A stretch of DNA of 64,000 nt from Candidatus Acidiferrales bacterium. Its GTDB lineage: Bacteria > Verrucomicrobiota > Verrucomicrobiia > Limisphaerales > UBA11358. Shown here piece after piece: positions 850 through 62,862 of the stretch; position 1 is the stretch's first letter, and the number at the start of each line of letters is the position of its first letter. The DNA is taken from NCBI GenBank assembly GCA_035499615.1, contig DATJYM010000273.1, positions 434 through 64,433 of the forward strand, given 5' to 3'. The notes below the pieces were generated by a model. That model was not told where the DNA came from, did not search any database, and was given only the letters and a program-made list of their open reading frames with translations. The translations under genes and the position numbers were made by a program.

Positions 850-1488
850 TTATCCTTTAACATGTGACAATGTTTGCAGTTTAGAGGCCTTAATGATGGC
901 GCGCACTTTGGCAGGGTCTTTCCGGCCCGGTGATGATTCCGCTCCGCTGGAAACATCCACGCCGAAGGGTTGAACCTGCCGGATCGCTTCGCCGACATTT
1001 TCGGGCGTCAGACCCCCGGCCAGAAAAACCGGTTTGCCCAGCTTTGGCACCTCCGCCGCCAGGGTCCAGTTGAATTTTTCGCCGGTTCCTCCGAACGCGT
1101 CGGATGCATAACCGTCCAGCAGCCACGCGTCGGTCCGATACTTCAGCAATTCCTTGAGCGACCCGGCGTCGCGGACGCGAAAGGCCTTCATACTCATCAG
1201 CCCGAACTGTGTGCAAAATTCCGGCGGCTCATCCCCATGAAATTGAAGCAGGTTCAGGCCGCATTCGCCGATGGCACGCCGGACCAGCTCTTCGGGGGGG
1301 TTCACAAAGACGCCGACGCGCAGGGTAAACGGCGGCAAGGACCGGCTGATTTCCGACGCCGTTTTTGTCGGAACAAACCGCGGGCTTTTCTCATAAAAAT
1401 TGAATCCCAGAGCGTCCGCGCCCGCCTCGACGGCGACCAGCGCGTCCGGCAGATTCGTGATACCGCAAATTTTGACCCGCGTGCTCAT
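850..1488 (-). CDS. trpF: phosphoribosylanthranilate isomerase
   Basis: 212-aa ORF with ATG start. N-terminal VKICGIT motif and overall PRAI-like sequence (GADALGFNF, FLAGGL). Confidence 0.85.
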   Translation of the reverse strand: MSTRVKICGITNLPDALVAVEAGADALGFNFYEKSPRFVPTKTASEISRSLPPFTLRVGVFVNPPEELVRRAIGECGLNLLQFHGDEPPEFCTQFGLMSMKAFRVRDAGSLKELLKYRTDAWLLDGYASDAFGGTGEKFNWTLAAEVPKLGKPVFLAGGLTPENVGEAIRQVQPFGVDVSSGAESSPGRKDPAKVRAIIKASKLQTLSHVKG

Positions 1489-1490
1489 TT

Positions 1491-1562
1491 TCGATTTACA
1501 ATTTTCGATTTACGATTCATCTGGCAAACCGGCTCGTAAATCGTAAATCGTAAATCGTAAAT
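1491..1562. repeat. inverted 7-nt-period arrays (ATTTACG / CGTAAAT) forming a hairpin
   Basis: Left arm 1491-1517 is tcgatttacaattttcgatttacgatt. Right arm 1535-1562 is four copies of cgtaaat. A 12-bp perfect pairing cgatttacgatt/aatcgtaaatcg is possible in several registers. Confidence 0.9.
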
Positions 1563-1568
1563 TGCCAA

Positions 1569-3620
1569 TCAATGAACAAAATGGCTGACGGTCTGATACA
1601 CGACAAACGCGCAGACATAGGCCAGGCCGGTCATATAAGCGATCTGGAACAAGGGCCATTTCCAGCCGCCCGTTTCGCGGCGCATGACGGCCGTGGTGGA
1701 AAGACATTGCGCGGCCAGGATGTAAAACACCAGCAGGCTGGCGCAGGTGGCGGTGGTGAACATGGGTGTACCGTCAGAACGAGCCGCTCGGCGCAGCGAA
1801 TCGTAAAGCGACGCGCTATGATGCTCGGCGGCGTCCTGGCCGACGCCGTAAACGATGGCCAGCGTGGAAACGATGACCTCGCGCGCGGCGAACGAACTGA
1901 TGATGCCGATGCCGATCTGCCAGTCGTAGCCGAGCGGTTTCAGCACCGGCTCCAGTAAACGGCCCAGCTTGCCGGCGGCGGAGTTTTGCAGCGAGTTTTG
2001 CGCTGAAAGATGGTCGGCGTCGGCGTGAAGTTCCGCGGCTTTCTGCGTGTCACCGGATTTTTCCAGTTGCACGGCCTGGGCCGTCAGCGCGACGGCGGCG
2101 GGCGGGGGCGTGGATTTTGGGTAATGCGAAAGCGCCCAAAGCACGAGCGAGACCACCAAGATGATGGTGCCCGCCTGTTTCACAAAGATTTTCGCGCGGT
2201 CAAACGTGTGCAACAGCGCCGAGCGCAGGCCGGGCAGGCGATACGGCGGCAGTTCAATCAGCAAGGGCCGGCTGCCGCCCGGCAAAATGGTGCGGTTGAA
2301 CACGACCGCCGACAGCACCGCCGCCAGGGCGCCGGTCGCGTAGGCCGCCGTGAAAACCAGGGCGGCTTTGAGTGGCGAATGCGGAAACAGCAGCGCGGTA
2401 ACCATGGCGTAAACGGGAATCCGCGCCGAACAGGTCAGCAGCGGCGTCACCAGGATGGTGACCAGCCGGTCGCGCGGATTTTCGATGACGCGTGCGGACA
2501 TGATGGCAGGAATGGCACAGGCGTGTGCCGAGAGCATCGGTACGAACGCCTTGCCCGGCAATCCGAGCCGGCGCATGATCTTGTCCATCACCAGCGCCGC
2601 ACGCGACAGATAGCCGGTGTCTTCCAGCAGCGACAGCGCGAAAAACAGAATGCAGATCTGCGGCAGGAACACCAGCACGCCGCCGACGCCGCCGATGACG
2701 CCGTTGACCAGCAGGCTTTGCCAGTCGCCCGGCGGTGTGTGCGCCGCAATCCAGGCGCCGCCGGTGCTGAACAGGCGGCTGATGAGACCCATCGGAATCT
2801 CCGCGGCCCAGAAAATCAGCGCGAACAACAGAAGCATGACGATTTGAAAAACGACGACACCCGCGACGGGGTGCGTCAAAAAGTCGTCGAGTTTTTCCGT
2901 CCGGACCGAACGCCGCGCCGCGGCCGCGTCCATCACCTTCGTCGAAATCTGTTCGGTCCATTCGTAGCGAGCCTGATAGGGACAACCGCTGCAACCCAGC
3001 GCGCAGGCGGGCTTGGTGTGCGCAACGGGGTTCGCGGTCTTGCCGGTCATGAGCCGCGCCATCTCGGTCTTGAGCTCGCCGATCCCCATGCCGGTGCGCG
3101 CCGAAATGGGGACCACGGAACACCCGAGTTCGGCGCGAAGCTTCGCAACGTCAATCCGGATACCGTCGCGCCGGGCCGTGTCCATCATGTTCAGCGCCAC
3201 GACGACGGGACAATCCAGTTCGAGCACCTGGCTGACGAGAAACAGGTTCCGTTCGAGGTTGGTAGCGTCCACGACGACCAGTGCGGCATTGGGTGCGGAG
3301 TGGCTGTCCAGCCGGCCATGCAGGGCGTCGCTCGCGATTTTTTCCTCCGGCGAAGAGCTTTCCAGGCTGTAAAGCCCGGGCAAGTCCACCACGACCATCT
3401 GGTGGTCGCCAAGGTGCGCGCGTCCGACCCGGCGCTCGACGGTGGTGCCGGGAAAATTCGCGGTCTTGGCACGCAGGCCGGTCAACGCATTGAACAGGGT
3501 GGTCTTGCCGGCATTGGGATTGCCGACCAGCGCGAGCGTAAAGGCGTGATGCGGCAAAACAACGGTCTGACCCTCGTCGCCACAGGATGCCCCGAACCCG
3601 AATTTAAGGGAATCACTCAT
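1569..3620 (-). CDS. feoB: ferrous iron transporter B
   Basis: 683 aa. N-terminal G-domain P-loop LVGNPNAGKTTLFNALTG followed by a long polytopic membrane region. Confidence 0.92.
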   Translation of the reverse strand: MSDSLKFGFGASCGDEGQTVVLPHHAFTLALVGNPNAGKTTLFNALTGLRAKTANFPGTTVERRVGRAHLGDHQMVVVDLPGLYSLESSSPEEKIASDALHGRLDSHSAPNAALVVVDATNLERNLFLVSQVLELDCPVVVALNMMDTARRDGIRIDVAKLRAELGCSVVPISARTGMGIGELKTEMARLMTGKTANPVAHTKPACALGCSGCPYQARYEWTEQISTKVMDAAAARRSVRTEKLDDFLTHPVAGVVVFQIVMLLLFALIFWAAEIPMGLISRLFSTGGAWIAAHTPPGDWQSLLVNGVIGGVGGVLVFLPQICILFFALSLLEDTGYLSRAALVMDKIMRRLGLPGKAFVPMLSAHACAIPAIMSARVIENPRDRLVTILVTPLLTCSARIPVYAMVTALLFPHSPLKAALVFTAAYATGALAAVLSAVVFNRTILPGGSRPLLIELPPYRLPGLRSALLHTFDRAKIFVKQAGTIILVVSLVLWALSHYPKSTPPPAAVALTAQAVQLEKSGDTQKAAELHADADHLSAQNSLQNSAAGKLGRLLEPVLKPLGYDWQIGIGIISSFAAREVIVSTLAIVYGVGQDAAEHHSASLYDSLRRAARSDGTPMFTTATCASLLVFYILAAQCLSTTAVMRRETGGWKWPLFQIAYMTGLAYVCAFVVYQTVSHFVH

Positions 3621-15369: not shown

Positions 15370-16554
15370 TCAACGCGCCATTTTCCAGATTCCCAGCAGC
15401 GCGCCGAAGCCGCATAACAGCAGACCGCTGACGGCGAAGGCGCTGCCATGGGCGAGCTGCGGCAGGAATTGCAGCGTCACCGCGCCGGTCGCCGGGCCGA
15501 TACAGTTGCCGATGCCGATGGCCGCTTCGTGGATCCCGCCGTGCTCGCCCTTGGTGTCGCCGGCGTCCATCGAGTAAAAGAGCGACGAGTAATAAATCAG
15601 CCCGATGGCGCCGCCGAAAAATATTTGTGCTACAATCAGCACCGGCAGACTCGGCACGGTAAGAATGGAAATGAAGGAAACGATGAGCAGCGCAAATGCC
15701 GCCACCAGCCACCGGAACCGGTAGTGCCAGTCGGTCCAGAGCCACAGGGTCAAAAATGTTCCAAACCGCACAAACCCCCACAACGAGCAGGCAAATCCCG
15801 CGAACATCGGTGAGAGATGAAAATGCGCGGCCACACCCGGCAGTTCAGGAATGAACGTATTGATGGCGATGTAGGCGACCGGATTGGCGAGCCAGGCCAT
15901 GCGCAGGAAGGCCCGGGTCCGGACCGGCGCCGGCCGGTGGGGGTCGGGCGGAATGACGGGCGCGGGCGCGCCGTCCGGCGAGGCCCCACCAATGACCTGT
16001 TTTTCCAGCCACAACGTTGCCGCCAGTTGCCCGAGACACAGGGCCAGCGGCAGGTAGAAGATGGTTTTAAACCCGAATGCTTCCACCAGAGTCCCGCCAC
16101 TGAACAGGGCCAGCGCGTTGGTGGAGGCCCAGACGAGATTGTAGGTGCCAACGGCACGCGGCAGGGTAATGGCGTCACCGCCCTCACTGACCATGGCTTC
16201 GATGGTTGGCCAGAGGAAACACATGCCCACGTTGAACAAGCCGGTGGCGACAACCACGCCGGACGCGGAATGGCATTGCGAGCCGGCGGCCAGCGCGAGG
16301 ATCATCAGGCCGAACCCGGCCTTAAGCGCGGTGAAGCAGCCGTGGCGTTGGACAAACCGACCGGCCTGCCAGGCGGCGATGGTATAAATGAGGCCGTTGA
16401 GCGCGGCGAAGGCGAGGTTGTGTTTGTTGTCAAAACCAAACCGGTCCCGCATGTAAAAATAGAGATAATAGGAATTGAGAGACGTTGCGAAGGAGCTCAA
16501 TCCCTCGAACGCAAAGCAAGCCCGCTTAACTTCGCGCCCGCCTTTAGTAATCAT
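15370..16554 (-). CDS. MFS transporter
   Basis: About 12 hydrophobic segments. Start trimmed to the internal ATG at 16554 (MITKGG...), because the longer ORF would overlap the upstream zinc-ribbon gene by 120 nt. The remaining overlap is 11 nt. Confidence 0.75.
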   Translation of the reverse strand: MITKGGREVKRACFAFEGLSSFATSLNSYYLYFYMRDRFGFDNKHNLAFAALNGLIYTIAAWQAGRFVQRHGCFTALKAGFGLMILALAAGSQCHSASGVVVATGLFNVGMCFLWPTIEAMVSEGGDAITLPRAVGTYNLVWASTNALALFSGGTLVEAFGFKTIFYLPLALCLGQLAATLWLEKQVIGGASPDGAPAPVIPPDPHRPAPVRTRAFLRMAWLANPVAYIAINTFIPELPGVAAHFHLSPMFAGFACSLWGFVRFGTFLTLWLWTDWHYRFRWLVAAFALLIVSFISILTVPSLPVLIVAQIFFGGAIGLIYYSSLFYSMDAGDTKGEHGGIHEAAIGIGNCIGPATGAVTLQFLPQLAHGSAFAVSGLLLCGFGALLGIWKMAR

Positions 16555-17035
16555 ACAGTCCGCTGTCCCGGGTGAAGCCGCCGCCGCCTTCTCCGCTGCC
16601 CATGAAATCGCCCAGGACGTCACCCATGTCGGCTTCGATTCTTTCCGGGTCCTCACCGGCTTCAAGCCGTTTGATGGCCACGTCCAGTTCCTTGGGAACA
16701 GACCCCGGCGGCATGAGATTTTTCATTTTTTTCATCATGTGGGCCATGTGCCGGGGATTATTCTCGTCCATGTGTTCCATGTCGCGTTCGAGTTCCATCA
16801 TGGCGCGCTCGACGCGCGGATCGTCCATGTCCGGCATCGGCGATCCGCCGGGTTCAGAGCCGGTTGAGGCGGCGGGCTCGGCCAGTTTGCGGGTCGTGGC
16901 AAACCGGCTGACCTGCTTGGACATTTTTTTGTTGCCGCACTTCGGGCAGACGGGCAGCCGCCCGGGGGCGACGCGCTTGGAGAGGAAGCTGAAAATCCTC
17001 CGGCACTTCGGGCAGGCAAATTCGTAAATCGGCAT
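16544..17035 (-). CDS. FmdB-family zinc-ribbon protein with a Met/His-rich and acidic C-terminal extension
   Basis: N-terminus MPIYEFACPKC...CPKCG matches the CxxC-CxxC FmdB signature. It is followed by MMELERDMEHMDENNPRHMAHMMKKMKNLM. Confidence 0.75.
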   Translation of the reverse strand: MPIYEFACPKCRRIFSFLSKRVAPGRLPVCPKCGNKKMSKQVSRFATTRKLAEPAASTGSEPGGSPMPDMDDPRVERAMMELERDMEHMDENNPRHMAHMMKKMKNLMPPGSVPKELDVAIKRLEAGEDPERIEADMGDVLGDFMGSGEGGGGFTRDSGLYDY

Positions 17036-17134
17036 TTCGATTTACGATTTACGATTTACGATTTACGCACGCCAGAAAAAAAGCGAGCCTCCGGAAACTC
17101 GGAGGCCCGTCAATCGTATATCGTAAATCGCAAA
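17036..17134. repeat. inverted 7-nt-period arrays (CGATTTA x4 / CGTAAAT-like) bracketing the korB terminator
   Basis: Left arm 17038-17067 is cgatttacgatttacgatttacgatttacg. Right arm 17110-17134 is caatcgtatatcgtaaatcgcaaatc. An 11-bp perfect pairing is possible. Confidence 0.9.
17072..17108 (-). terminator. rho-independent terminator of korAB
   Basis: On the minus strand, the hairpin gcctccg-agtttc-cggaggc is followed by tcgcttttttt. Confidence 0.8.
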
Positions 17135-18103
17135 TCACTTCATCTTGTCGAAATTCTTCTGAAGAATCTGCCAGTCCTTCAAGCCTTTGACCTTTTCCAT
17201 CATGCCGCGCTGGATTTCCGCCTCCTTGGCGTTTTTGGTCGGCTTGTTGTTTTTGTAAAAAATACCGAAGTAACCGGGGAAATCCGCTCCGGCCAGTTTG
17301 TAAGCGGCCAGCTCATCGGTCACGTCGTGATCCTTCGGGACTTCGTTGAACACACCGCCTTTGCGCGGATTGGCGGCGTCGAACGCGCCTTCGTAAAATT
17401 CCACGCACTCGCTCAGGCATTCCACGAAGCCGAAACCGTCGTGGTCCATCGCGGCTTCCATCATCGCCAGGACGTGGTTCGGATTCGTGGACGTGGTGCG
17501 GGCGACAAAGGTGGCGCCGGCGGCAACGGCCTGTTTCATCGGGTTGATGGGATAATCCACCGCGCCCCACGGATCGGTCTTGCTCTTGAACCCGAGCGGC
17601 GATGTTGGCGAGGTCTGTTTCTTGGTCAGCCCATAAACCCAGTTGTCCATGACCACGTAGGTCATCTTGATGTTTTTCCGCGCGGTATGATTGAAATGAT
17701 TGCCGCCAATGGAAAACGCATCGCCGTCGCCGCCGAAAACGAACACGTGCAGATCCGGCCGCGAAAGCGAAATGCCCGTGGCGAACGGCAGCGCGCGCCC
17801 ATGAATGTAATGCACACCGTGCGCCTGCACAAAATACGGAAACCGGCTTGAGCAACCGATGCCCGCGACGGTCGTGATATTCTCATGCCATAGTTTGCGC
17901 TTTTCGATGAGCTTGAAATACAACGCGAGCACCGAAAAATCGCCGCAGCCGGGGCACCACGTCGGGTGATCGGCAGCGATTTCCTTTTTCGTCAGACCCT
18001 TGCGTTCGACAACCGGCGGTGCCGCAGCGGGGGCCGGGGTGGCGACGGGCACAGCCGCACGCATGGGGTTTTCGACAATCGTTTCGTTCATAACATCCTT
18101 CAA
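17135..18103 (-). CDS. korB: 2-oxoacid:ferredoxin oxidoreductase beta subunit
   Basis: 322 aa. Contains CPGCGDFSVL and the TPP-binding motif VFGGDGDAFSIGGNH. Confidence 0.9.
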   Translation of the reverse strand: MKDVMNETIVENPMRAAVPVATPAPAAAPPVVERKGLTKKEIAADHPTWCPGCGDFSVLALYFKLIEKRKLWHENITTVAGIGCSSRFPYFVQAHGVHYIHGRALPFATGISLSRPDLHVFVFGGDGDAFSIGGNHFNHTARKNIKMTYVVMDNWVYGLTKKQTSPTSPLGFKSKTDPWGAVDYPINPMKQAVAAGATFVARTTSTNPNHVLAMMEAAMDHDGFGFVECLSECVEFYEGAFDAANPRKGGVFNEVPKDHDVTDELAAYKLAGADFPGYFGIFYKNNKPTKNAKEAEIQRGMMEKVKGLKDWQILQKNFDKMK

Positions 18104-21100: not shown

Positions 21101-21184
21101 TGGTGCGCGCGAGAGGACTTGAACCTCCAACCCTTACGGGACCAGATCCTAAGTCTGGCGCGTCTGCCATTCCGCCACGCGCGC
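21101..21184 (-). tRNA. tRNA-Leu (anticodon UAG), CCA encoded
   Basis: The reverse complement reads GCGCGCGTGGCGGAATGGCAGACGCGCCAGACTTAGGATCTGGTCCCGTAAGGGTTGGAGGTTCAAGTCCTCTCGCGCGCACCA. It folds as a cloverleaf with a long variable arm and anticodon loop CTTAGGA. Confidence 0.95.
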
Positions 21185-28380: not shown

Positions 28381-29388
28381 TCAGGCGGCGCCGCGCCGGA
28401 GCCGGTCGGCGATGGCCAGCCATTCCGGCAAATCCGGCGGCGCTTCCACCACAATCCATTCCGCTCCCGCCTCATCGCTCCGATGCAGCTCTCCGTATAT
28501 CGCCCGCGCGAATGCCTCCGCGTCATGCGGAATCATACACACGTTGGCGAAATTTTCGGCGGAGGGAATTTTAGTGTGAGCAATGACGTGACACGTGAGA
28601 CGTGAGACGTGAGACGTGACAAGACGCACAAGCAAATCAGCGTCATCCTTCCAATCCAGCACCAATAATTTTGCCTTCGGCGAGTAATGTCTTTGCAAAA
28701 GGCCTGGACTCCGAAGCATTGAATGTTGAATGTCGAAAGTTGAATGTTGAATATTGCCCGTTACTGCCGCCAGTGATTCGGCGTGGATCATGCCCGGACG
28801 CAAAATGTCCGGCGGTGAAACCGTTAAATCCAGCACCGTGGATTCGATGCCGACCTGTGACTGGCCGCCATCAACAATCAGGGAAATTTTATGTCCGAGT
28901 TGATTGCGCACGTGCCCGGCATTGGTCGGTGAAACCCGGCCCGACAGATTCGCGCTGGGCGCGGCGAGCGGGAAGCCGCATTCGCGAATCACCGCTTGAA
29001 TCAGCGGATGGCCGGGCCAGCGCACGCCGACCGTGGCACCGCCGGCAGTCACATTGTCGGGAATCTCTTTTGCTCTTGGCAGGACGAGCGTGAGCGGACC
29101 GGGCCAGAACGCCTTCGCCAGATTATCAGCGTTGGCCGGCCAACTCGCCACGCACCGTTTCGCCATCTCCACACTGGCGACATGAACAATGATTGGATTA
29201 TTTGCCGGCCGGCCTTTGATTTGGAAAATATTTGCGATCGCGTTCTCATCCCAGGTGTTAGCGGCAAGGCCGTAAACCGTTTCTGTCGGCAAGGCCACCA
29301 CTTCACCCGCGCGCAGCCGGTCCGCCGCGCGTTTCACGGCGGCTTGAAAAAGCGCCGGCGTGTGCGTCGATAAAACTTCAGCGATCAC
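28381..29388 (-). CDS. L-threonylcarbamoyladenylate synthase (Sua5/TsaC family, YrdC plus Sua5 domains)
   Basis: Motifs VALPTETVYGLAAN and APSANLSGRVSPT. 335 aa. Contains two repeat-derived in-frame segments. Confidence 0.88.
   Translation of the reverse strand: MIAEVLSTHTPALFQAAVKRAADRLRAGEVVALPTETVYGLAANTWDENAIANIFQIKGRPANNPIIVHVASVEMAKRCVASWPANADNLAKAFWPGPLTLVLPRAKEIPDNVTAGGATVGVRWPGHPLIQAVIRECGFPLAAPSANLSGRVSPTNAGHVRNQLGHKISLIVDGGQSQVGIESTVLDLTVSPPDILRPGMIHAESLAAVTGNIQHSTFDIQHSMLRSPGLLQRHYSPKAKLLVLDWKDDADLLVRLVTSHVSRLTCHVIAHTKIPSAENFANVCMIPHDAEAFARAIYGELHRSDEAGAEWIVVEAPPDLPEWLAIADRLRRGAA
28585..28627. repeat. 7-nt-period array (GACGTGA-type, ~5 units) inside the sua5 coding sequence
   Basis: The sequence gacgtga cacgtga gacgtga gacgtga gacgtga caagacg encodes RLVTSHVSRLTCHV in the gene frame. 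Confidence 0.9.
28719..28756. repeat. 7-nt-period array (TTGAATG-type, 5 units) inside the sua5 coding sequence
   Basis: The sequence ttgaatg ttgaatg tcgaaag ttgaatg ttgaata encodes NIQHSTFDIQHSM in the gene frame. Confidence 0.9.
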
Positions 29389-33957: not shown

Positions 33958-34685
33958 TTCGCGGGCGTGGTGCTTTCCGGCGATTCTTCCTCGGCCGCCG
34001 CCGCCGAGGCGTCGGTTTCGGCCACTTCCGGTTCTTTCAAGGAAGCGTAATGCAGCCCCAGATTATGCTGCGCGGTCTTGTCACCCTGACGCGCGGCGCG
34101 GATGAACCATTTCATGGCTTCCTGGGGATTTTGTTCAACGCCGCGTCCTGTCTGGTAACACAGGCCGAGATTGCATTGCGCCGGCGCACACTCCTGTTCG
34201 GCGGCCGCGCGATACCATTTGACCGCTTCCGTGAAGTTTTGCGGCACGACCTGGCCGGTTTCATAAAAAACGCCAAGGTTGAATTGCGCCGCGGGATAAC
34301 CGCGTTCCGCCGCTTCACGATACCATTTGACCGCTTCCGCAAAATTTTGCGGCACGCCCTGGCCGGTTTCGTAGAGCACTCCCAGATTGAATTGCGCCGC
34401 CGGATCGCTTTGTTCGGCGGCCTCCCGCAGCCATTTGGCCGCCTCGCCGAATTCCTGCGGCACACCCGTGCCGTGCAAATAACATACGCCCAGATAGCAC
34501 TGTGCGACCGGGTCGCCTTGCTCCGCCGCGCGGCGAAACCACGTTACCGCGTCCTGATTATCCGGCGCTACTCCCTGGCCGGTTTGATAGCAAACGCCCA
34601 AATAGCATTGCGCCTGCGGGTCGCCCTCGTGGGCGGCTTGCCGCATCGCTTCAAACGAATCCCATGTTCGACGGCTGCTCGACAT
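33954..34685 (-). CDS. Sel1-like (TPR-family) repeat protein
   Basis: Five or more repeats of AQ.NLG..Y..G.GVPQN...A.KW.R.AAEQG. Its stop codon overlaps the trpD stop (shared TTAG). The start is uncertain (34685 or 34739). Confidence 0.8.
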   Translation of the reverse strand: MSSSRRTWDSFEAMRQAAHEGDPQAQCYLGVCYQTGQGVAPDNQDAVTWFRRAAEQGDPVAQCYLGVCYLHGTGVPQEFGEAAKWLREAAEQSDPAAQFNLGVLYETGQGVPQNFAEAVKWYREAAERGYPAAQFNLGVFYETGQVVPQNFTEAVKWYRAAAEQECAPAQCNLGLCYQTGRGVEQNPQEAMKWFIRAARQGDKTAQHNLGLHYASLKEPEVAETDASAAAAEEESPESTTPAN

Positions 34686-36356: not shown

Positions 36357-37436
36357 TCAGCCGTTTAACGCTTTTAGCCTTTCCTCCAGGTCATGCGTCA
36401 TCAGCGGGTCAATCAGCGGGTCAAGGTCGCCATCAATGAAGTTCGCCAGATTGTAAAGCGTCACCTCGATGCGATGGTCAGTGACGCGGTTTTGCGGAAA
36501 ATTGTAGGTGCGGATTTTTTCGTTGCGTTCTCCCGTGCCGACCTGTGATTTCCGATGGGCGGCATATTTTGCGTTTTCCTCGGCGATTTTCGCTTCCAGC
36601 AAACGTGAGCGCAGAACGGTCATGGCCCTGGCCCGGTTCTTCTGTTGCGAACGTTCGTCCGCGCAGCGCACAATCAATCCGCTGGGTTTATGCTGTATTT
36701 GCACGGCCGAGTCGGTGGTGTTCACGCCCTGGCCGCCCTTCCCGGATGCGCGGCAGACGTTGATCTCGACATCTTCCGGCTTGATCTCGATGTCCACCTC
36801 CTGCGCCTCCGGCAGCACCGCCACGGTGCTGGTGCTGGTGTGGATGCGCCCCTGGGCCTCGGTTGCCGGCACGCGCTGGACGCGGTGCACCCCGCTCTCG
36901 TATTTGAGCCGCTTGTAAACGTCCGCACCGTTGATCTGGAAGATTATTTCCTTGAATCCACCAAGGTCGGACGGATTGGAATCCAGCGTTTCCACCTTCC
37001 AGCCGCGAGCTTCGGCGTAACGGCAATACATCCGGTAGAGGTCGGCGGAGAACAGCGCGGATTCCGAGCCGCCCGCGCCGGCGCGGATTTCGATGATGGT
37101 GTTGCGCGAGTCGGTCGGATCCGGTGGTACCAGGCCGTACTGGATCTGCTGCGAAAGCTTTTTCTCATCCGCTTCCAGCCGGACGATGTCCTCCCTGGCC
37201 ATCAATGCCAGTTCGGAGTCCGTCGGTTCGGATTTCAGCATTACGCGGTTTTGTTCCAAATCAGCCAGCGTTTTGAGATAACGGTCACCATGCGCGACCA
37301 GCTCCTTGAGCCGGGCATATTCACGGGACAATTCCTGCGCGCGTTGCTGATTGTCGAACACCTTGGGATCACTCAACGCGATCTCGACCTCGCCCAAGCG
37401 CTTACGGAATTTTTCAATGTGCGGTGACAGATTCAT
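36357..37436 (-). CDS. prfA: peptide chain release factor 1
   Basis: GGQ motif GKGGQGVNTTDSAV and the RF1-specific PAT tripeptide in RVPATEAQGRIHTS. Confidence 0.93.
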   Translation of the reverse strand: MNLSPHIEKFRKRLGEVEIALSDPKVFDNQQRAQELSREYARLKELVAHGDRYLKTLADLEQNRVMLKSEPTDSELALMAREDIVRLEADEKKLSQQIQYGLVPPDPTDSRNTIIEIRAGAGGSESALFSADLYRMYCRYAEARGWKVETLDSNPSDLGGFKEIIFQINGADVYKRLKYESGVHRVQRVPATEAQGRIHTSTSTVAVLPEAQEVDIEIKPEDVEINVCRASGKGGQGVNTTDSAVQIQHKPSGLIVRCADERSQQKNRARAMTVLRSRLLEAKIAEENAKYAAHRKSQVGTGERNEKIRTYNFPQNRVTDHRIEVTLYNLANFIDGDLDPLIDPLMTHDLEERLKALNG

Positions 37437-37437
37437 T

Positions 37438-37510
37438 TGCGATTTACGATATACAGTTTACGACCGGATTAGCGCGCGTTGCGTCAATCGCAAATCGTAT
37501 ATCGTAAATC
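37438..37510. repeat. inverted 7-nt-period arrays (GATTTAC-type) forming a hairpin abutting the prfA start
   Basis: gatttacgatatac (37441-37454) pairs perfectly with gtatatcgtaaatc (37497-37510). Confidence 0.9.
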
Positions 37511-38070: not shown

Positions 38071-38144
38071 TGTCCGATGGTGTAATGGTAACACAGCGCC
38101 CTTTGGAGGCGTTATTCTTGGTTCGAATCCAAGTCGGACAGCCA
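38071..38144 (+). tRNA. tRNA-Gln (anticodon UUG), CCA encoded
   Basis: TGTCCGATGGTGTAATGGTAACACAGCGCCCTTTGGAGGCGTTATTCTTGGTTCGAATCCAAGTCGGACAGCCA. Acceptor stem TGTCCGA/TCGGACA, anticodon loop CTTTGGA. Confidence 0.95.
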
Positions 38145-44902: not shown

Positions 44903-45255
44903 TGGTGGAGGCGGCGGGAGTTGAACCCGCGTCCCCGGCAAACAAACCAGCCGCGACTACATGCTTAGTCCGGAGAATTTTTTCTGCTGTGCGATGGCGT
45001 CCGGACTCGAATCGCACTGCCTAGTCCGCATGGAATTTTCTCGGCCAACAGCGCGCGGTCTCCGCCGTCAACCATGCCTGCTATGGCGTTCGTCCGGCGT
45101 AGCAGGTGTCCACCGGCGAACGTCGCAGCACTTTAGGCCGCGAGAGCTAATTCTTCGTTAGCTGTTTTGTTTGATGCGATGATTAACGAGGCCAACGCAT
45201 CGTCCTCGGCATGCCGCCTCTGGCGCATTCACTGGGTCGAAACCGGTGCGCCCCC
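44903..45255 (-). ncRNA. ssrA: tmRNA (SsrA), one-piece, CCA encoded; tag ORF at 45133-45162 encodes ANEELALAA
   Basis: 5' end GGGGGCGCACCGGTTTCGAC and 3' end GGTTCAACTCCCGCCGCCTCCACCA, a tRNA-Ala-like acceptor with a G3:U pair. Also GCATGCCGAGG...GGCCTCGT, and the resume frame GCT AAC GAA GAA TTA GCT CTC GCG GCC TAA. Confidence 0.93.
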
Positions 45256-48237: not shown

Positions 48238-48281
48238 AATGTAAAGCATAATTTACATTATGTCAAGCATTCTTTACATTG
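48238..48281. promoter_or_regulatory. two adjacent 22-bp palindromic operator-like sites upstream of the membrane-XRE operon
   Basis: AATGTAAA-gcataa-TTTACATT (48238-48259), then TATGTCAA-gcattc-TTTACATT (48259-48280). The first site begins 8 nt upstream of the ATG at 48230. Confidence 0.55.
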
Positions 48282-50163: not shown

Positions 50164-50171
50164 AATCTTAA

Positions 50172-50203
50172 GTTGATGGTTGAATGTTAAATGTTGAGAG
50201 TTT
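50172..50203. repeat. 7-nt-period array filling the groES-groEL spacer
   Basis: In mRNA sense it reads ctcaaca tttaaca ttcaacc atcaact taagatt ATG. Confidence 0.75.
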
Positions 50204-53370: not shown

Positions 53371-53384
53371 CGGGCGGATTCTAA

Positions 53385-53417
53385 GATCAAAGTTCGAAGT
53401 TCAAAGTTCAAAATGTT
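53385..53417. repeat. 7-nt-period array (AAGTTCA/AAGTTCG) in the pyrE leader
   Basis: In mRNA sense it reads ttgaact ttgaact tcgaact ttgatct tagaatc, then cgcccg ATG. Confidence 0.8.
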
Positions 53418-53490
53418 GCAGGAGCCGACGTCCCGAGGCTCAAGTCGCAAAATTAAGAGACTCCTTACGTCGTCTCCTACAATTTTTTCT
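53416..53490 (+). repeat. 70-nt hairpin element, copy B, followed by a T-run
   Basis: ttgcaggagccgacg (53416-53430) pairs with cgtcgtctcctacaa (53468-53482) with two mismatches, followed by tttttt. It aligns to the reverse complement of copy A. Confidence 0.8.
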
Positions 53491-54818: not shown

Positions 54819-56570
54819 GTGCTCCCGCACCGACATATTGAACTCCGCCTGCAACAGGCCGTCCGCGCCGTCCTGCCGGATGCCGACATAGCCGCAGTGC
54901 TGGTTCGTCCATGTCCGGACCCGAAATTCGGCGATTACCAGAGTAACGCGCTGATGTCGCTGGCCAAGGCAAGAAAGTCAAATCCGCGGCAATTGGCCGC
55001 CGACGTTCTGGCGAAGCTGGATGTATCTGAAATTTGTGAAAGTGTTGAAATTGCCGGTGCCGGTTTTCTGAATTTTCGGCTCAAGAATTCCATGCTCGCG
55101 CAGACGCTCAAGTCCGCGGCGCGCGGCGAGCATCTTTTCTTCGACAAGGCGGCGCAGCCGAAAACCATTGTCATTGATTTCAGCTCACCGAATGTGGCCA
55201 AGCCGATGCACGTCGGACATATCCGCTCGACCATTCTGGGCGACTGCCTGGCCCGCACCTTGCGGCTGCTCGGGCACCAGGTCATTACCGACAATCACAT
55301 CGGCGACTGGGGCCTGCAATTTGGCTTGCTGGTCGTCGGTTGGAAGAAGCACCTGAATCGCGAGGCGCTTGGGGTGGAACCGCTGGGTGAAATGGAGCGG
55401 CTTTACAAGCTGGCGTTTGCCGCCAGCCAGGCCGACGCAAAAGTCCTGGAGGAAGCGCGGCAGGAGCTCGTCAAATTGCAGCGTCGTGACCCGGAAAATC
55501 TCGGCATCTGGGGGGAAATGCGCGATCTTTCCTTGCGCCAATTCAGTTCCGTTTACGACCGCCTGGGGGTGAGATTCGATCATACTTACGGAGAAAGTTC
55601 CTACAATGCCCGTCTGGAATTCCTGGTTCAGGATTTGATCGCCCAGGGCATCGCACGCGAAAGCGAAGGCGCGATTGTGGTTTTCTTCGACGATATTCCC
55701 CAGTTATCCAAACAACCGCTCATCATCCGGAAGAGTGACGGCGGGTTCAATTATGCCACCACCGATCTGGCGACGCTCGAATTCCGACTCGATTCGTGGA
55801 AGCCCAATGAAATCATTTACGTCACCGACGGCCGTCAGCAATTGCATTTCCAGCAGGTCTTCGCCGCGTTCCAAAAATGGCGACAGGCCAATTCCGAGCT
55901 CCGCAGTTCGAACCATGGACTCAAATTGGCCCATGTGTGGTTCGGCTCAATCCTGGGTGAGGACGGCAAGCCGTTCAAAACCCGCAGCGGCGAAACCGTG
56001 AAACTGACGGACCTGTTGGATGAAGCCGAAGAGCGCGCCTTTAGAATCGTGTCTGAAAAGAACCCCGATTTGCCGGAGGCGCAGCGGCGCGAGATCGCGC
56101 GCGTGGTCGGACTGGGCGCGGTGAAATACGCCGACCTGCTGCCGAACCGGCAGAGCGATTACGTGTTCAGCTGGGACAAGATGCTGGCACTCAACGGCAA
56201 TACCGCTCCGTATCTCCAGTACGCCTACACGCGGATCAAAAGCATTTTCCGGAAGGTGGCGGAAACATCGAACATCGAACGTCGAACAACGAACATTGAA
56301 TTGACCGAACCCGAAGAAATTGTGCTGGCGAAGCATTTACTGAATTTTGGGCTGACGCTGGAAGCCGCGGCCGAGGAATACCGCCCGAATTTTCTCTGCA
56401 ATTATCTTTTCGAACTGGCCGGAAAATTCACCGCGTTCTATGAAAATTGCCCGGTGCTCAAAGCCGATGACGCCACCCGGGCCGGCCGGCTCGCGTTATG
56501 TGATTTGACCGCGCGCGTTCTCCAACAGGGACTGGAAGCCCTCGGCATCGAAACGGTGGAACAGATGTGA
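54819..56570 (+). CDS. argS: arginine--tRNA ligase
   Basis: 583 aa with GTG start. HIGH-type motif SSPNVAKPMHVGHIRSTILGD and a C-terminal DALR-type domain. Confidence 0.93.
   Translation: MLPHRHIELRLQQAVRAVLPDADIAAVLVRPCPDPKFGDYQSNALMSLAKARKSNPRQLAADVLAKLDVSEICESVEIAGAGFLNFRLKNSMLAQTLKSAARGEHLFFDKAAQPKTIVIDFSSPNVAKPMHVGHIRSTILGDCLARTLRLLGHQVITDNHIGDWGLQFGLLVVGWKKHLNREALGVEPLGEMERLYKLAFAASQADAKVLEEARQELVKLQRRDPENLGIWGEMRDLSLRQFSSVYDRLGVRFDHTYGESSYNARLEFLVQDLIAQGIARESEGAIVVFFDDIPQLSKQPLIIRKSDGGFNYATTDLATLEFRLDSWKPNEIIYVTDGRQQLHFQQVFAAFQKWRQANSELRSSNHGLKLAHVWFGSILGEDGKPFKTRSGETVKLTDLLDEAEERAFRIVSEKNPDLPEAQRREIARVVGLGAVKYADLLPNRQSDYVFSWDKMLALNGNTAPYLQYAYTRIKSIFRKVAETSNIERRTTNIELTEPEEIVLAKHLLNFGLTLEAAAEEYRPNFLCNYLFELAGKFTAFYENCPVLKADDATRAGRLALCDLTARVLQQGLEALGIETVEQM
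56264..56303. repeat. 7-nt-period array (AACATCG-type, 5 units) inside the argS coding sequence
   Basis: The sequence aacatcg aacatcg aacgtcg aacaacg aacattg encodes ETSNIERRTTNIELT in frame. Confidence 0.9.
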
Positions 56571-62787: not shown

Positions 62788-62862
62788 GCGCGGTTAGCTC
62801 AGCGGTAGAGCACCAGTATCACACACTGGGGGTCGCAGGTTCAAAACCTGCACCGCGCACCA
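62788..62862 (+). tRNA. tRNA-Val (anticodon CAC), CCA encoded
   Basis: GCGCGGTTAGCTCAGCGGTAGAGCACCAGTATCACACACTGGGGGTCGCAGGTTCAAAACCTGCACCGCGCACCA. Anticodon loop ATCACAC. Confidence 0.95.

Follow-up and report, generated by a model that had tools for sequence, protein, structure and literature searches.

Tandem heptamers next to start codons have been recorded for a decade in Beggiatoaceae, Cyanobacteria and Bacteroidetes, without explanation. The TAACTGA repeats of marine Beggiatoaceae, Cyanobacteria and Bacteroidetes lie near start codons, were counted as 169 direct sets with only one indirect repeat, and have had S1, Csp and CsrA proposed as their binders (MacGregor 2015; PMC4679880). In Nostoc, TTTTGAA/TTCAAAA heptamers near start codons affect reporter expression, and an unidentified heptamer-binding factor has been proposed (bioRxiv 10.1101/2022.06.06.494920). 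As summarised in PMC4679880, Mrazek (2007) found heptanucleotide simple repeats to be the most abundant class of long repeats in most bacterial genomes. Here we analyse a 64-kb stretch of contig DATJYM010000273.1 (the window), in which the spacer between a korB-like gene and a Zn_ribbon_8 gene on the minus strand holds two heptad arrays facing each other across an intrinsic terminator. We tentatively read it, at somewhat less than an even chance, as the ordinary intrinsic terminator of korAB followed by a conserved heptad leader or control module of the zinc-ribbon gene, free of Shine-Dalgarno motifs, with the distal arm as a mirror copy of that leader. The nested look would thus mostly be two ordinary but poorly understood elements standing together.

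As with the TAACTGA and Nostoc heptamers, the arrays are made of tandem 7-nt units in two to six copies which end a few nt from a start codon, cover the expected ribosome-binding site without a Shine-Dalgarno motif, and carry a stop codon in the forward orientation of the unit. They likewise precede functionally unrelated genes, lie in some cases inside open reading frames (ORFs) in the stop-free orientation, and are distributed patchily over several phyla. In the window we found at least three tandem copies per array, an over-representation of period 7, and start-abutting arrays at several unrelated genes (trpF, zinc ribbon, prfA, groEL and a phosphoribosyltransferase). They differ from the TAACTGA repeats in their unit, CGTAAAT, and in their Verrucomicrobiota-like host; membership of the TAACTGA family was rejected on account of the unit. 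In minus-strand order the spacer runs from the korB-like stop through arm 1, a GC hairpin with a T7 run, and arm 2 to the ATG of the zinc-ribbon gene:

17135–17137, minus strand: stop codon TGA of the korB-like gene (ORF 17135–18103), whose 3 nt also open the predicted outer stem
17108–17136, minus strand: arm 1, a degenerate (ATTTACG)n array, in RNA sense TTTGCG ATTTACG ATATACG ATTGACG, the inverted partner of arm 2
17084–17109, minus strand: terminator stem-loop of 10 bp (8 GC) with a 6-nt loop, -19 kcal/mol, tail CTTTTTTTCT
17076–17082, minus strand: T7 run, the U-tract of the terminator, identity 0.86 across orthologs
17068–17074, minus strand: TGGCGTG motif between the T-run and arm 2, conserved, TGGCGCG in most orthologs
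17034–17067, minus strand: arm 2, (CGTAAAT)4-5 in RNA sense, 5.0 copies by Tandem Repeats Finder (TRF), ending 2–3 nt before the ATG
17033–17035 (CAT on the plus strand), minus strand: ATG of the Zn_ribbon_8 (FmdB-type) gene, ORF 16544–17035, PF09723, 163 aa
17019–17031, minus strand: zinc-ribbon codons 2–6, CCGATTTACGAATT, complementary to the arm 2 heptads (17038–17064)

A preliminary description, made from the letters of the window, had named these genes korB, zinc ribbon and, further downstream, MFS, and the domain matches agree. ORF 17135–18103 matches TPP_enzyme_C and is called korB-like because it follows a POR/POR_N gene; the pair looks like the korA and korB of a 2-oxoacid:ferredoxin oxidoreductase, the beta subunit being korB-like. 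An MFS transporter gene comes after the zinc-ribbon gene. The same description reported four perfect CGATTTA units beside the ATG at 17035, an inverted partner arm at the korB stop, and a GC hairpin with a T-run between them on the minus strand, and each of these was recovered. The perfect units (plus-strand reading) occupy 17038–17065 and are continued by CG up to 17067, while on the minus strand CGAA separates them from the ATG. Arm 1 (4.1 copies with 81% matches by TRF) overlaps the korB-like stop, and an inverted-repeat search pairs 17039–17067 with 17108–17136, 29 nt of 90% complementarity lying 40 nt apart. The terminator scan placed the stem at 17109→17084, and CTGGCGTG sits between the T7 run and arm 2 in the minus-strand reading. 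The leader formed by arm 2 is AU-rich, is devoid of a Shine-Dalgarno motif, and contains TAA in all three frames.

This arrangement exceeds chance expectation. The minus-strand RNA from 17140 to 17030, whose folding had been recommended as a check, reaches -52.8 kcal/mol (z = -7.6), with none of 200 shuffles as stable, and its minimum free energy (MFE) fold has an outer AU-rich stem enclosing the terminator, as proposed. The sequence CGATTTACG, allowing at most one mismatch, has 38 matches in the window against 17.3 expected, none of 100 shuffles reaching 38, and these concentrate at three loci. Self-similarity at lag 7 marks 12 regions of the window as against 0–6 at each other lag from 4 to 13. 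A search of Rfam gave no family at gathering score in the spacer, the best sub-threshold match being atoC with 22 bits against a cut-off of 50.

For comparison we collected 83 homologous zinc-ribbon loci (73–96% protein identity), 50 of which have korB directly upstream; L-numbers denote homologous or related loci from other genomes. The layout of the window, arms and terminator together, recurs in 37 of the 50 (the terminator class), and the outer pairing is part of the MFE fold in 34 of these 37. In most of the class heptads also make up the lower terminator stem, ATTTACGAG and CTCGTAAAT flanking a variable GC core ahead of the T-run, and downstream of the T-run stand a conserved TGGCGCG and an arm 2 reading TCAATCG TRAATCG TAAATCG TAAATCC. 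Six of the 50 have only the arms, set around a 17–25-nt loop with neither hairpin core nor T-run, and all six have the outer pairing in their MFE fold. A further six have the terminator directly after korB and, in place of ATTTACG arms, different repeats before the ATG. The remaining locus, L125, has a 33-nt spacer and was kept out of these classes. The comparison of spacers in relatives, which the preliminary description had called for, therefore came out divided: arms and terminator stay together in 37 of 50, while six of 50 keep a terminator without these arms. That description had named a terminator kept in relatives that had lost the arms as the result that would count against it, and a minority of orthologs have just that.

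Eight loci with another gene or an insertion upstream (L125, L139, L140, L161, L166, L176, L190 and L192) keep the T-run, TGGCGCG, arm 2 and the ATG, and have no arm 1. In L139 the upstream ORF, of 303 aa, is divergent and lies 125 nt away; since the start-proximal module is kept all the same, a separate promoter in or beside it must serve the zinc-ribbon gene at this locus. It is probable that the zinc-ribbon gene has its own promoter, in which case its main transcript would not include arm 1.

Other heptads were also seen at these loci. In L135, L167, L122 and L175, which have no ATTTACG arms, the zinc-ribbon leader contains AATTCGTG-type repeats; opposite them in L135, after the terminator, stand inverted CACGGATT repeats, with which they pair through G·U, in the sense-strand RNA only, so that a different unit has adopted a similar palindromic layout. 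Downstream of the zinc-ribbon stop in L138, L141 and L154 is a (CGTAAAT)3 array without an inverted partner, which has the same 3' junction (TAAATTCCG ATG) to the next gene, whose protein begins MAHIHEKIDF.

Covariation and duplex strength were assessed on 35 aligned spacers of the terminator class. The RNAalifold consensus holds the terminator hairpin only, with compensatory changes in seven of nine pairs, and an explicit count finds seven of the eight pairs of the terminator helix changed on both sides; on this comparative evidence the terminator of the preliminary description is a real one. The outer helices behave otherwise. Over their 25 pairs, 76–85% of cells are paired, and changes on both sides occur in only three, all at frayed ends. 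The arm 1:arm 2 duplex averages -17.97 kcal/mol within a locus against -18.40 between loci (permutation p = 0.89), and a shuffled arm 1 gives the far weaker value of -7.95. As pairing within a locus is no better than between loci, the complementarity of the arms comes from a common heptad consensus and not from locus-specific co-evolution. With three frayed pairs of 25 and this p value, covariation does not support the outer stem as a selected, structured cis-regulatory RNA. The window copy has the strongest arm 1:arm 2 duplex of the 35, at -30.8 kcal/mol (-34.6 with full-length arms). Mean pairwise identities were as follows:

Four-fold synonymous sites: 0.67
Distal arm 1: 0.62
Terminator stems: 0.62–0.65
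Arm 1 heptad beside the terminator: 0.86
T-run: 0.86
TGGCGCG: 0.85
Arm 2: 0.85
Final 6 nt ahead of the ATG: 0.46

On these alignments the terminator and the start-proximal module appear to be constrained, and the distal arm to drift at about the rate of synonymous sites. By our own reasoning, the lower figure of 76% outer pairing is about what the decay of an ancestral perfect palindrome would leave. Among the cells of the outer stem, which are not independent of one another, sense-strand G·U number 78 and A·C 36, a mild excess that hints at some tolerance of the stem at the RNA level. The proposal that the nest is one selected design was not borne out: the outer arms have no informative covariation, the distal arm evolves at nearly the synonymous rate, and arms and terminator are separable.

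We would explain the spacer as follows. The intrinsic terminator would end korAB transcripts, and the (CGTAAAT)n array, together with the GGCGCG and the T-rich sequence ahead of it, would form the conserved 5' control region and leader of the zinc-ribbon gene. We infer that this leader acts in cis, most likely on translation initiation, either as an unstructured ribosome-loading region or as a site for a single-stranded RNA-binding factor, and it is one case of the heptamer arrays found at start codons in this Shine-Dalgarno-poor organism and in many phyla. The korB-proximal array would be a decaying mirror copy of the leader, able to pair with it only in transcripts that read through the terminator. 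In those, a predicted duplex of ~28 bp and -31 to -35 kcal/mol would put the korB stop and the zinc-ribbon start at the base of the stem, masking read-through translation unless ribosomes terminating on korB, or a double-strand RNase, opened it. Of the suggestion that the outer stem sequesters the leader, the predicted pairing stands, and its reach shrinks to the read-through transcripts. Any effect of the stem would be modulatory and lineage-specific, and would not be the reason why the locus is conserved.

Counted in favour of a leader is the fact that arrays of other heptads also adjoin start codons, that of a NUDIX gene in relatives included. Shine-Dalgarno-like motifs are almost absent upstream of ~40 genes of the window, and Verrucomicrobia have been reported to be Shine-Dalgarno-scarce (PMC10783764). 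The regions just ahead of the start codons in the window are AT-rich, in a genome of ~57% GC. The zinc-ribbon protein has a 100% identical counterpart in an NCBI metagenome-assembled genome that bears the label Candidatus Acidoferrales. The nearest named relatives of this protein and of RF1 belong to Limisphaerales, Verrucomicrobiae or Verrucomicrobiota; the record label Candidatus Acidoferrales is probably wrong, and we take the organism to be Verrucomicrobiota-like.

Several points weigh against this explanation. For the promoter of the zinc-ribbon gene, a scan of the coding strand of the spacer gave no sigma-70-like site, and the -35/-10 candidates inspected by hand in the arms are poor. 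Were the gene dependent on read-through, none of its transcripts would escape the influence of the outer stem. The explanation gives no reason for the conservation of GGCGCG. Since heptad arrays also lie inside ORFs (Sua5, ArgRS), arrays can exist without a leader function, and the prfA palindrome described below is absent from relatives with 89–92% RF1 identity, hence dispensable there. The conservation of arm 2, lastly, could be due in part to homogenisation of repeats rather than to selection.

Other readings of the spacer were tried and set aside. An attenuator or riboswitch is disfavoured by the position of arm 2, the only strong partner of arm 1, downstream of the U-run, and by the proximal heptad of arm 1, which extends the terminator stem and does not compete with it; by the time arm 2 is transcribed the termination decision has already been taken, so that it cannot be an antiterminator. 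A sigma-54 promoter at TGGCGCG (GG-N10-GC, by inspection) has TCGT or AATC where TTGC is expected, and the arms-only orthologs have TTGCGCG, without the GG. Zinc-ribbon codons 2–6 are predicted to pair with arm 2 in an alternative hairpin that places the AUG in a 6-nt loop. As a conserved switch this was rejected: the heptads are complementary to codons 2–5, at z = -2.3 to -4.1, in the heptad class only, z is near zero in other leader classes, and, the coding sequence being equally conserved in all leader classes, the pairing is without covariation. The AAATTCGTG repeats of a second ortholog leader class show weak complementarity to the neighbouring stretch of this zinc-ribbon coding segment.

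The palindrome is not confined to this spacer, two further copies being present in the window together with arrays of other heptads:

1487–1570, minus strand: second palindrome copy, with the feoB stop (1569–1571), arm 1 of four units, a 20-nt loop, arm 2 and the trpF ATG (1488)
37435–37510, minus strand: third palindrome copy, with arm 1, a 19-nt loop, arm 2 and the prfA ATG (37436)
50170–50202: TCAACAT-like period-7 array, filling the 42-nt groES-groEL spacer
53378–53418: TTTGAAC x5 array, 8 nt before the ATG of a phosphoribosyltransferase gene, in a divergent intergenic region
28581–28629 and 28715–28762: heptad arrays inside the Sua5/TsaC ORF (inter-domain/Sua5_C region), translating to NIQHSTFDIQHS and TSHVSRLTCHV
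56259–56302: heptad array inside the ArgRS ORF (variable loop), translating to ETSNIERRTTNIE

The feoB-trpF copy spans its spacer from stop to ATG with no terminator inside (fold z = -6.2). At prfA the terminator lies outside the arms, the order being the rpmE (L31) stop, the terminator (37570→37527), 16 nt, and then the arms (z = -3.5). In all three copies the arm of CGTAAAT sense stops 2–4 nt ahead of the ATG; because a palindrome of this type reads identically on both strands, a CGTAAAT arm always faces the flanking start codon. The units of the three in-ORF arrays are stop-free in the coding sense.

The prfA palindrome is nearly identical in L205 and L206 (96–97% RF1 identity) and absent from L207–L210 (89–92%), where the T-run of the terminator is followed by ~8 nt and the ATG; given this absence, it is a lineage-specific insertion of ~80 nt, dispensable in those relatives. 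In its arm 1 the variant heptads follow one another as they do in the korB copy and in arms-only orthologs (ATTTACG ATATACG ATTTRCG ATTGACG CAA), and this shared order suggests that the palindrome arms have been copied between loci. A single mobile element was rejected, as the three copies have unrelated loops and the only repeat flanking the prfA insertion is an ambiguous GCAA. Judged as miniature inverted-repeat transposable elements (MITEs) or REP-like elements, the copies are dispersed, have inverted ends and show presence/absence polymorphism; they have neither conserved internal sequence nor a clean target-site duplication. In related Verrucomicrobiota the same palindrome type stands flush with the ATG of the trpF ortholog (L069) and of other genes, including, in L068 and L081, a NUDIX-like gene identified by eye.

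Some further repeats and genes were noted in passing. L007, a metagenome-assembled genome of Verrucomicrobiia, has four modules of (ATTTACG)n, ACGAG and a GC hairpin within 8 kb, which look like arm 1 of the korB spacer joined to its terminator core. The window itself contains a 108-nt tandem repeat (2.6 copies, 75% matches) at 34164–34442, a 21-nt repeat in two copies that has dyad symmetry within it (ATGTAAAGCATAATTTACATT) at 48239–48280, and, as Rfam gathering matches, a tmRNA gene (44903–45255) and three tRNA genes (21104–21184, 38071–38141 and 62788–62859).

Beyond these relatives, a search of genome contigs with the exact sequence (CGATTTA)3CG returned at least 120 stretches from at least 10 phyla, many of them several to a genome and many adjoining arrays of different heptads (GTGAGGC, TTAGCTG, CATAAGT, AGAATGC, GGGACAC, CGTAAAC). 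Among the matches listed, some arrays are at least 16 units long, and 23 of 123 are accompanied by an inverted array no more than 160 nt away. A strict rule of orientation was rejected: of 125 arrays listed, 62 have a plausible start at most 60 nt downstream when read in CGTAAAT sense, and 40 when read in the opposite sense. The tendencies in orientation and inverted partners are modest biases, not rules. Tandem scans of IMG/VR gave 16 stretches of this unit, 0 and 6 of two composition-matched units, and 68 of TAACTGA; the unit is thus not unique in occurring in tandem, and tandem heptads occur generally, with some units preferred, and are not the signature of one conserved function. Among the papers covered by a text search, none had the CGTAAAT repeat in this context.

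Close to the preliminary description is the proposal that the nest is a selected riboregulator, whose outer stem in read-through RNA sequesters the leader and sets zinc-ribbon/MFS expression after korAB, possibly with an RNase III site that would part the two mRNAs; RNase III takes double-stranded RNA of at least ~20 bp, and the predicted duplex has ~28, in read-through RNA only. The strength of the predicted stem (z = -7.6), its base joining stop and start codons, a layout kept in 37 of 50 korB-linked orthologs with the outer pairing predicted in 34 of the 37, the greater number of G·U than of A·C cells on the sense strand, and a spacer in which the scan gave no sigma-70-like promoter would all suit it. 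We nevertheless think it distinctly unlikely: the 25 outer pairs have no compensatory changes except at frayed ends, arms pair as well across loci as within them, the distal arm evolves at a synonymous-like rate, and the parts come apart, with arms without a terminator in six orthologs and two window copies and a terminator without arms in six orthologs. The leader is moreover kept without arm 1, even by a gene with a divergent neighbour, and arm 2 is made too late to be an antiterminator. Arm 1 could instead work in trans, forming with the terminator hairpin and U-tail a small RNA (sRNA) from the 3' untranslated region (3'-UTR) whose (AUUUACG)n seed masks the (CGUAAAU)n leaders of zinc ribbon, trpF, prfA and NUDIX genes. 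An AU-rich single strand followed by a terminator hairpin and a U-run resembles the 3' module of Hfq-type sRNAs, several genes of this genome and its relatives start behind complementary leaders, and L007 has its several (ATTTACG)n-ACGAG-hairpin modules within 8 kb. This proposal is wholly inferential, however; its putative seed, the distal arm 1, is the least conserved part of the spacer, a stable 3' fragment and a chaperone are both unsupported, and we hold it to be very improbable.

It is also unlikely, if somewhat less so than the riboregulator, that the arrays are non-functional repeat DNA, produced by polymerase slippage favouring 7-nt units or by palindromic MITE/REP-like insertion into tolerant spacers, with the terminator inside by chance. 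The window has many different period-7 units, some within ORFs, IMG/VR has tandem heptads of several units (16, 0, 6 and 68 stretches for four of them), CGTAAAT occurs in at least 10 phyla beside arrays of other units, and the ~80 nt of the prfA copy are present in close relatives and absent from more distant ones. A genome-wide excess of heptanucleotide simple repeats has also been published (Mrazek 2007, as summarised in PMC4679880). Neutral repeats sit less well with an arm 2 whose position-specific variants (TCAATCG TGAATCG TAAATCG TAAATCC) are held at 0.85 across orthologs of 74–96% protein identity, well above the synonymous level, with arrays that stop a few nt from the start codons of many unrelated genes, or with three copies having unrelated loops and no clean target-site duplication. 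The strict 7-nt phasing, the sequence conservation of arm 2 without structural covariation, and the identity of 0.86 in the arm 1 heptad beside the terminator stem would suit heptads that were tandem protein sites. The protein could be a single-stranded RNA binder with a footprint of ~7 nt (a cold-shock-domain protein or ribosomal protein S1) which promotes translation and perhaps modulates termination at arm 1, or a DNA regulator for which the inverted arrays are the operator. S1, Csp and CsrA have been suggested for the TAACTGA repeats (PMC4679880), as has a heptamer-binding factor in Nostoc (10.1101/2022.06.06.494920). Yet nothing ties a candidate protein to the arrays, the downstream genes (trpF, prfA, groEL, NUDIX, zinc ribbon) are functionally unrelated, and a sequence-specific binder does not explain quite different units at the same position; we regard protein sites as improbable, slightly more so than the riboregulator. 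With still less conviction we mention a general scheme in which start-flush heptad arrays, (CGUAAAU)n being a widespread unit, would be a cis translation signal of Shine-Dalgarno-poor bacteria (Verrucomicrobiota, Bacteroidota, Cyanobacteria, Chloroflexota and others), read by a single-stranded RNA-binding factor with a 7-nt footprint, while inverted copies, in cis or in trans as terminator-ended 3'-UTR fragments, would be anti-leaders that tune the signal.

To the heptamers already on record this locus adds a unit that is new and very widespread, and a palindromic layout that fills entire spacers between genes. It also adds a comparison of dozens of orthologous spacers, in which the terminator and the start-proximal array are conserved and the distal arm is not, and so offers a testable handle on whether heptad arrays are translation signals in bacteria without Shine-Dalgarno sequences. 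Should the arrays be slippage products only, they would counsel caution, since a predicted hairpin made of repeats, with z = -7.6, can arise and persist without a sign of selection on its helix.

The korAB terminator, favoured here as one of the two elements of the spacer, is like other Rho-independent terminators in its GC stem-loop and U-run just 3' of the stop on the coding strand and in its covarying stem; it is unlike the typical one in that its lower stem is extended, in most orthologs, by conserved heptads and the hairpin lies inside a larger AU-rich inverted repeat. REP/BIME, ERIC and the Neisseria Correia/nemis elements are small palindromic intergenic repeats transcribed with the flanking genes. 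The palindrome copies share with REP, ERIC and Correia their dispersal as 75–105-nt copies, inverted ends, location in co-directional spacers, predicted RNA hairpins and differences in presence/absence; they differ in having tandem heptads as arms, unrelated loops, and ends at stop and start codons, and neither a clean target-site duplication nor a cognate transposase was identified for them. In classical translational coupling, as between the coat and replicase genes of phage MS2, an initiation region is masked by long-range pairing and freed by translation of the upstream gene. The predicted outer stem similarly starts at the upstream stop and ends 3–5 nt before the downstream AUG, and because it does so a terminating ribosome would unmask the leader. 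Unlike the MS2 case, the stem is a prediction without covariation, a strong terminator stands in its loop, and the prfA copy is not beside a stop codon.

Heptanucleotide simple sequence repeats (SSRs) and the cyanobacterial short tandemly repeated repetitive (STRR) heptamers, the latter reportedly described by Mazel et al. in 1990, agree with the present arrays in the over-representation of period 7, the mostly intergenic location and the several unit types per genome. Descriptions of SSRs and STRRs have been statistical or aimed at fingerprinting, whereas here conserved orthologous arrays are flush with starts and form palindromic pairs. The arrays depart from both the TAACTGA and the Nostoc heptamers in occurring as inverted pairs that span a spacer from stop to start, in one pair's enclosing an intrinsic terminator, and in a layout kept across dozens of orthologous loci. 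What was already known, then, is that heptamers stand before start codons; what is new is the CGTAAAT unit, the host phylum, the stop-to-start palindrome, and the terminator built into it.

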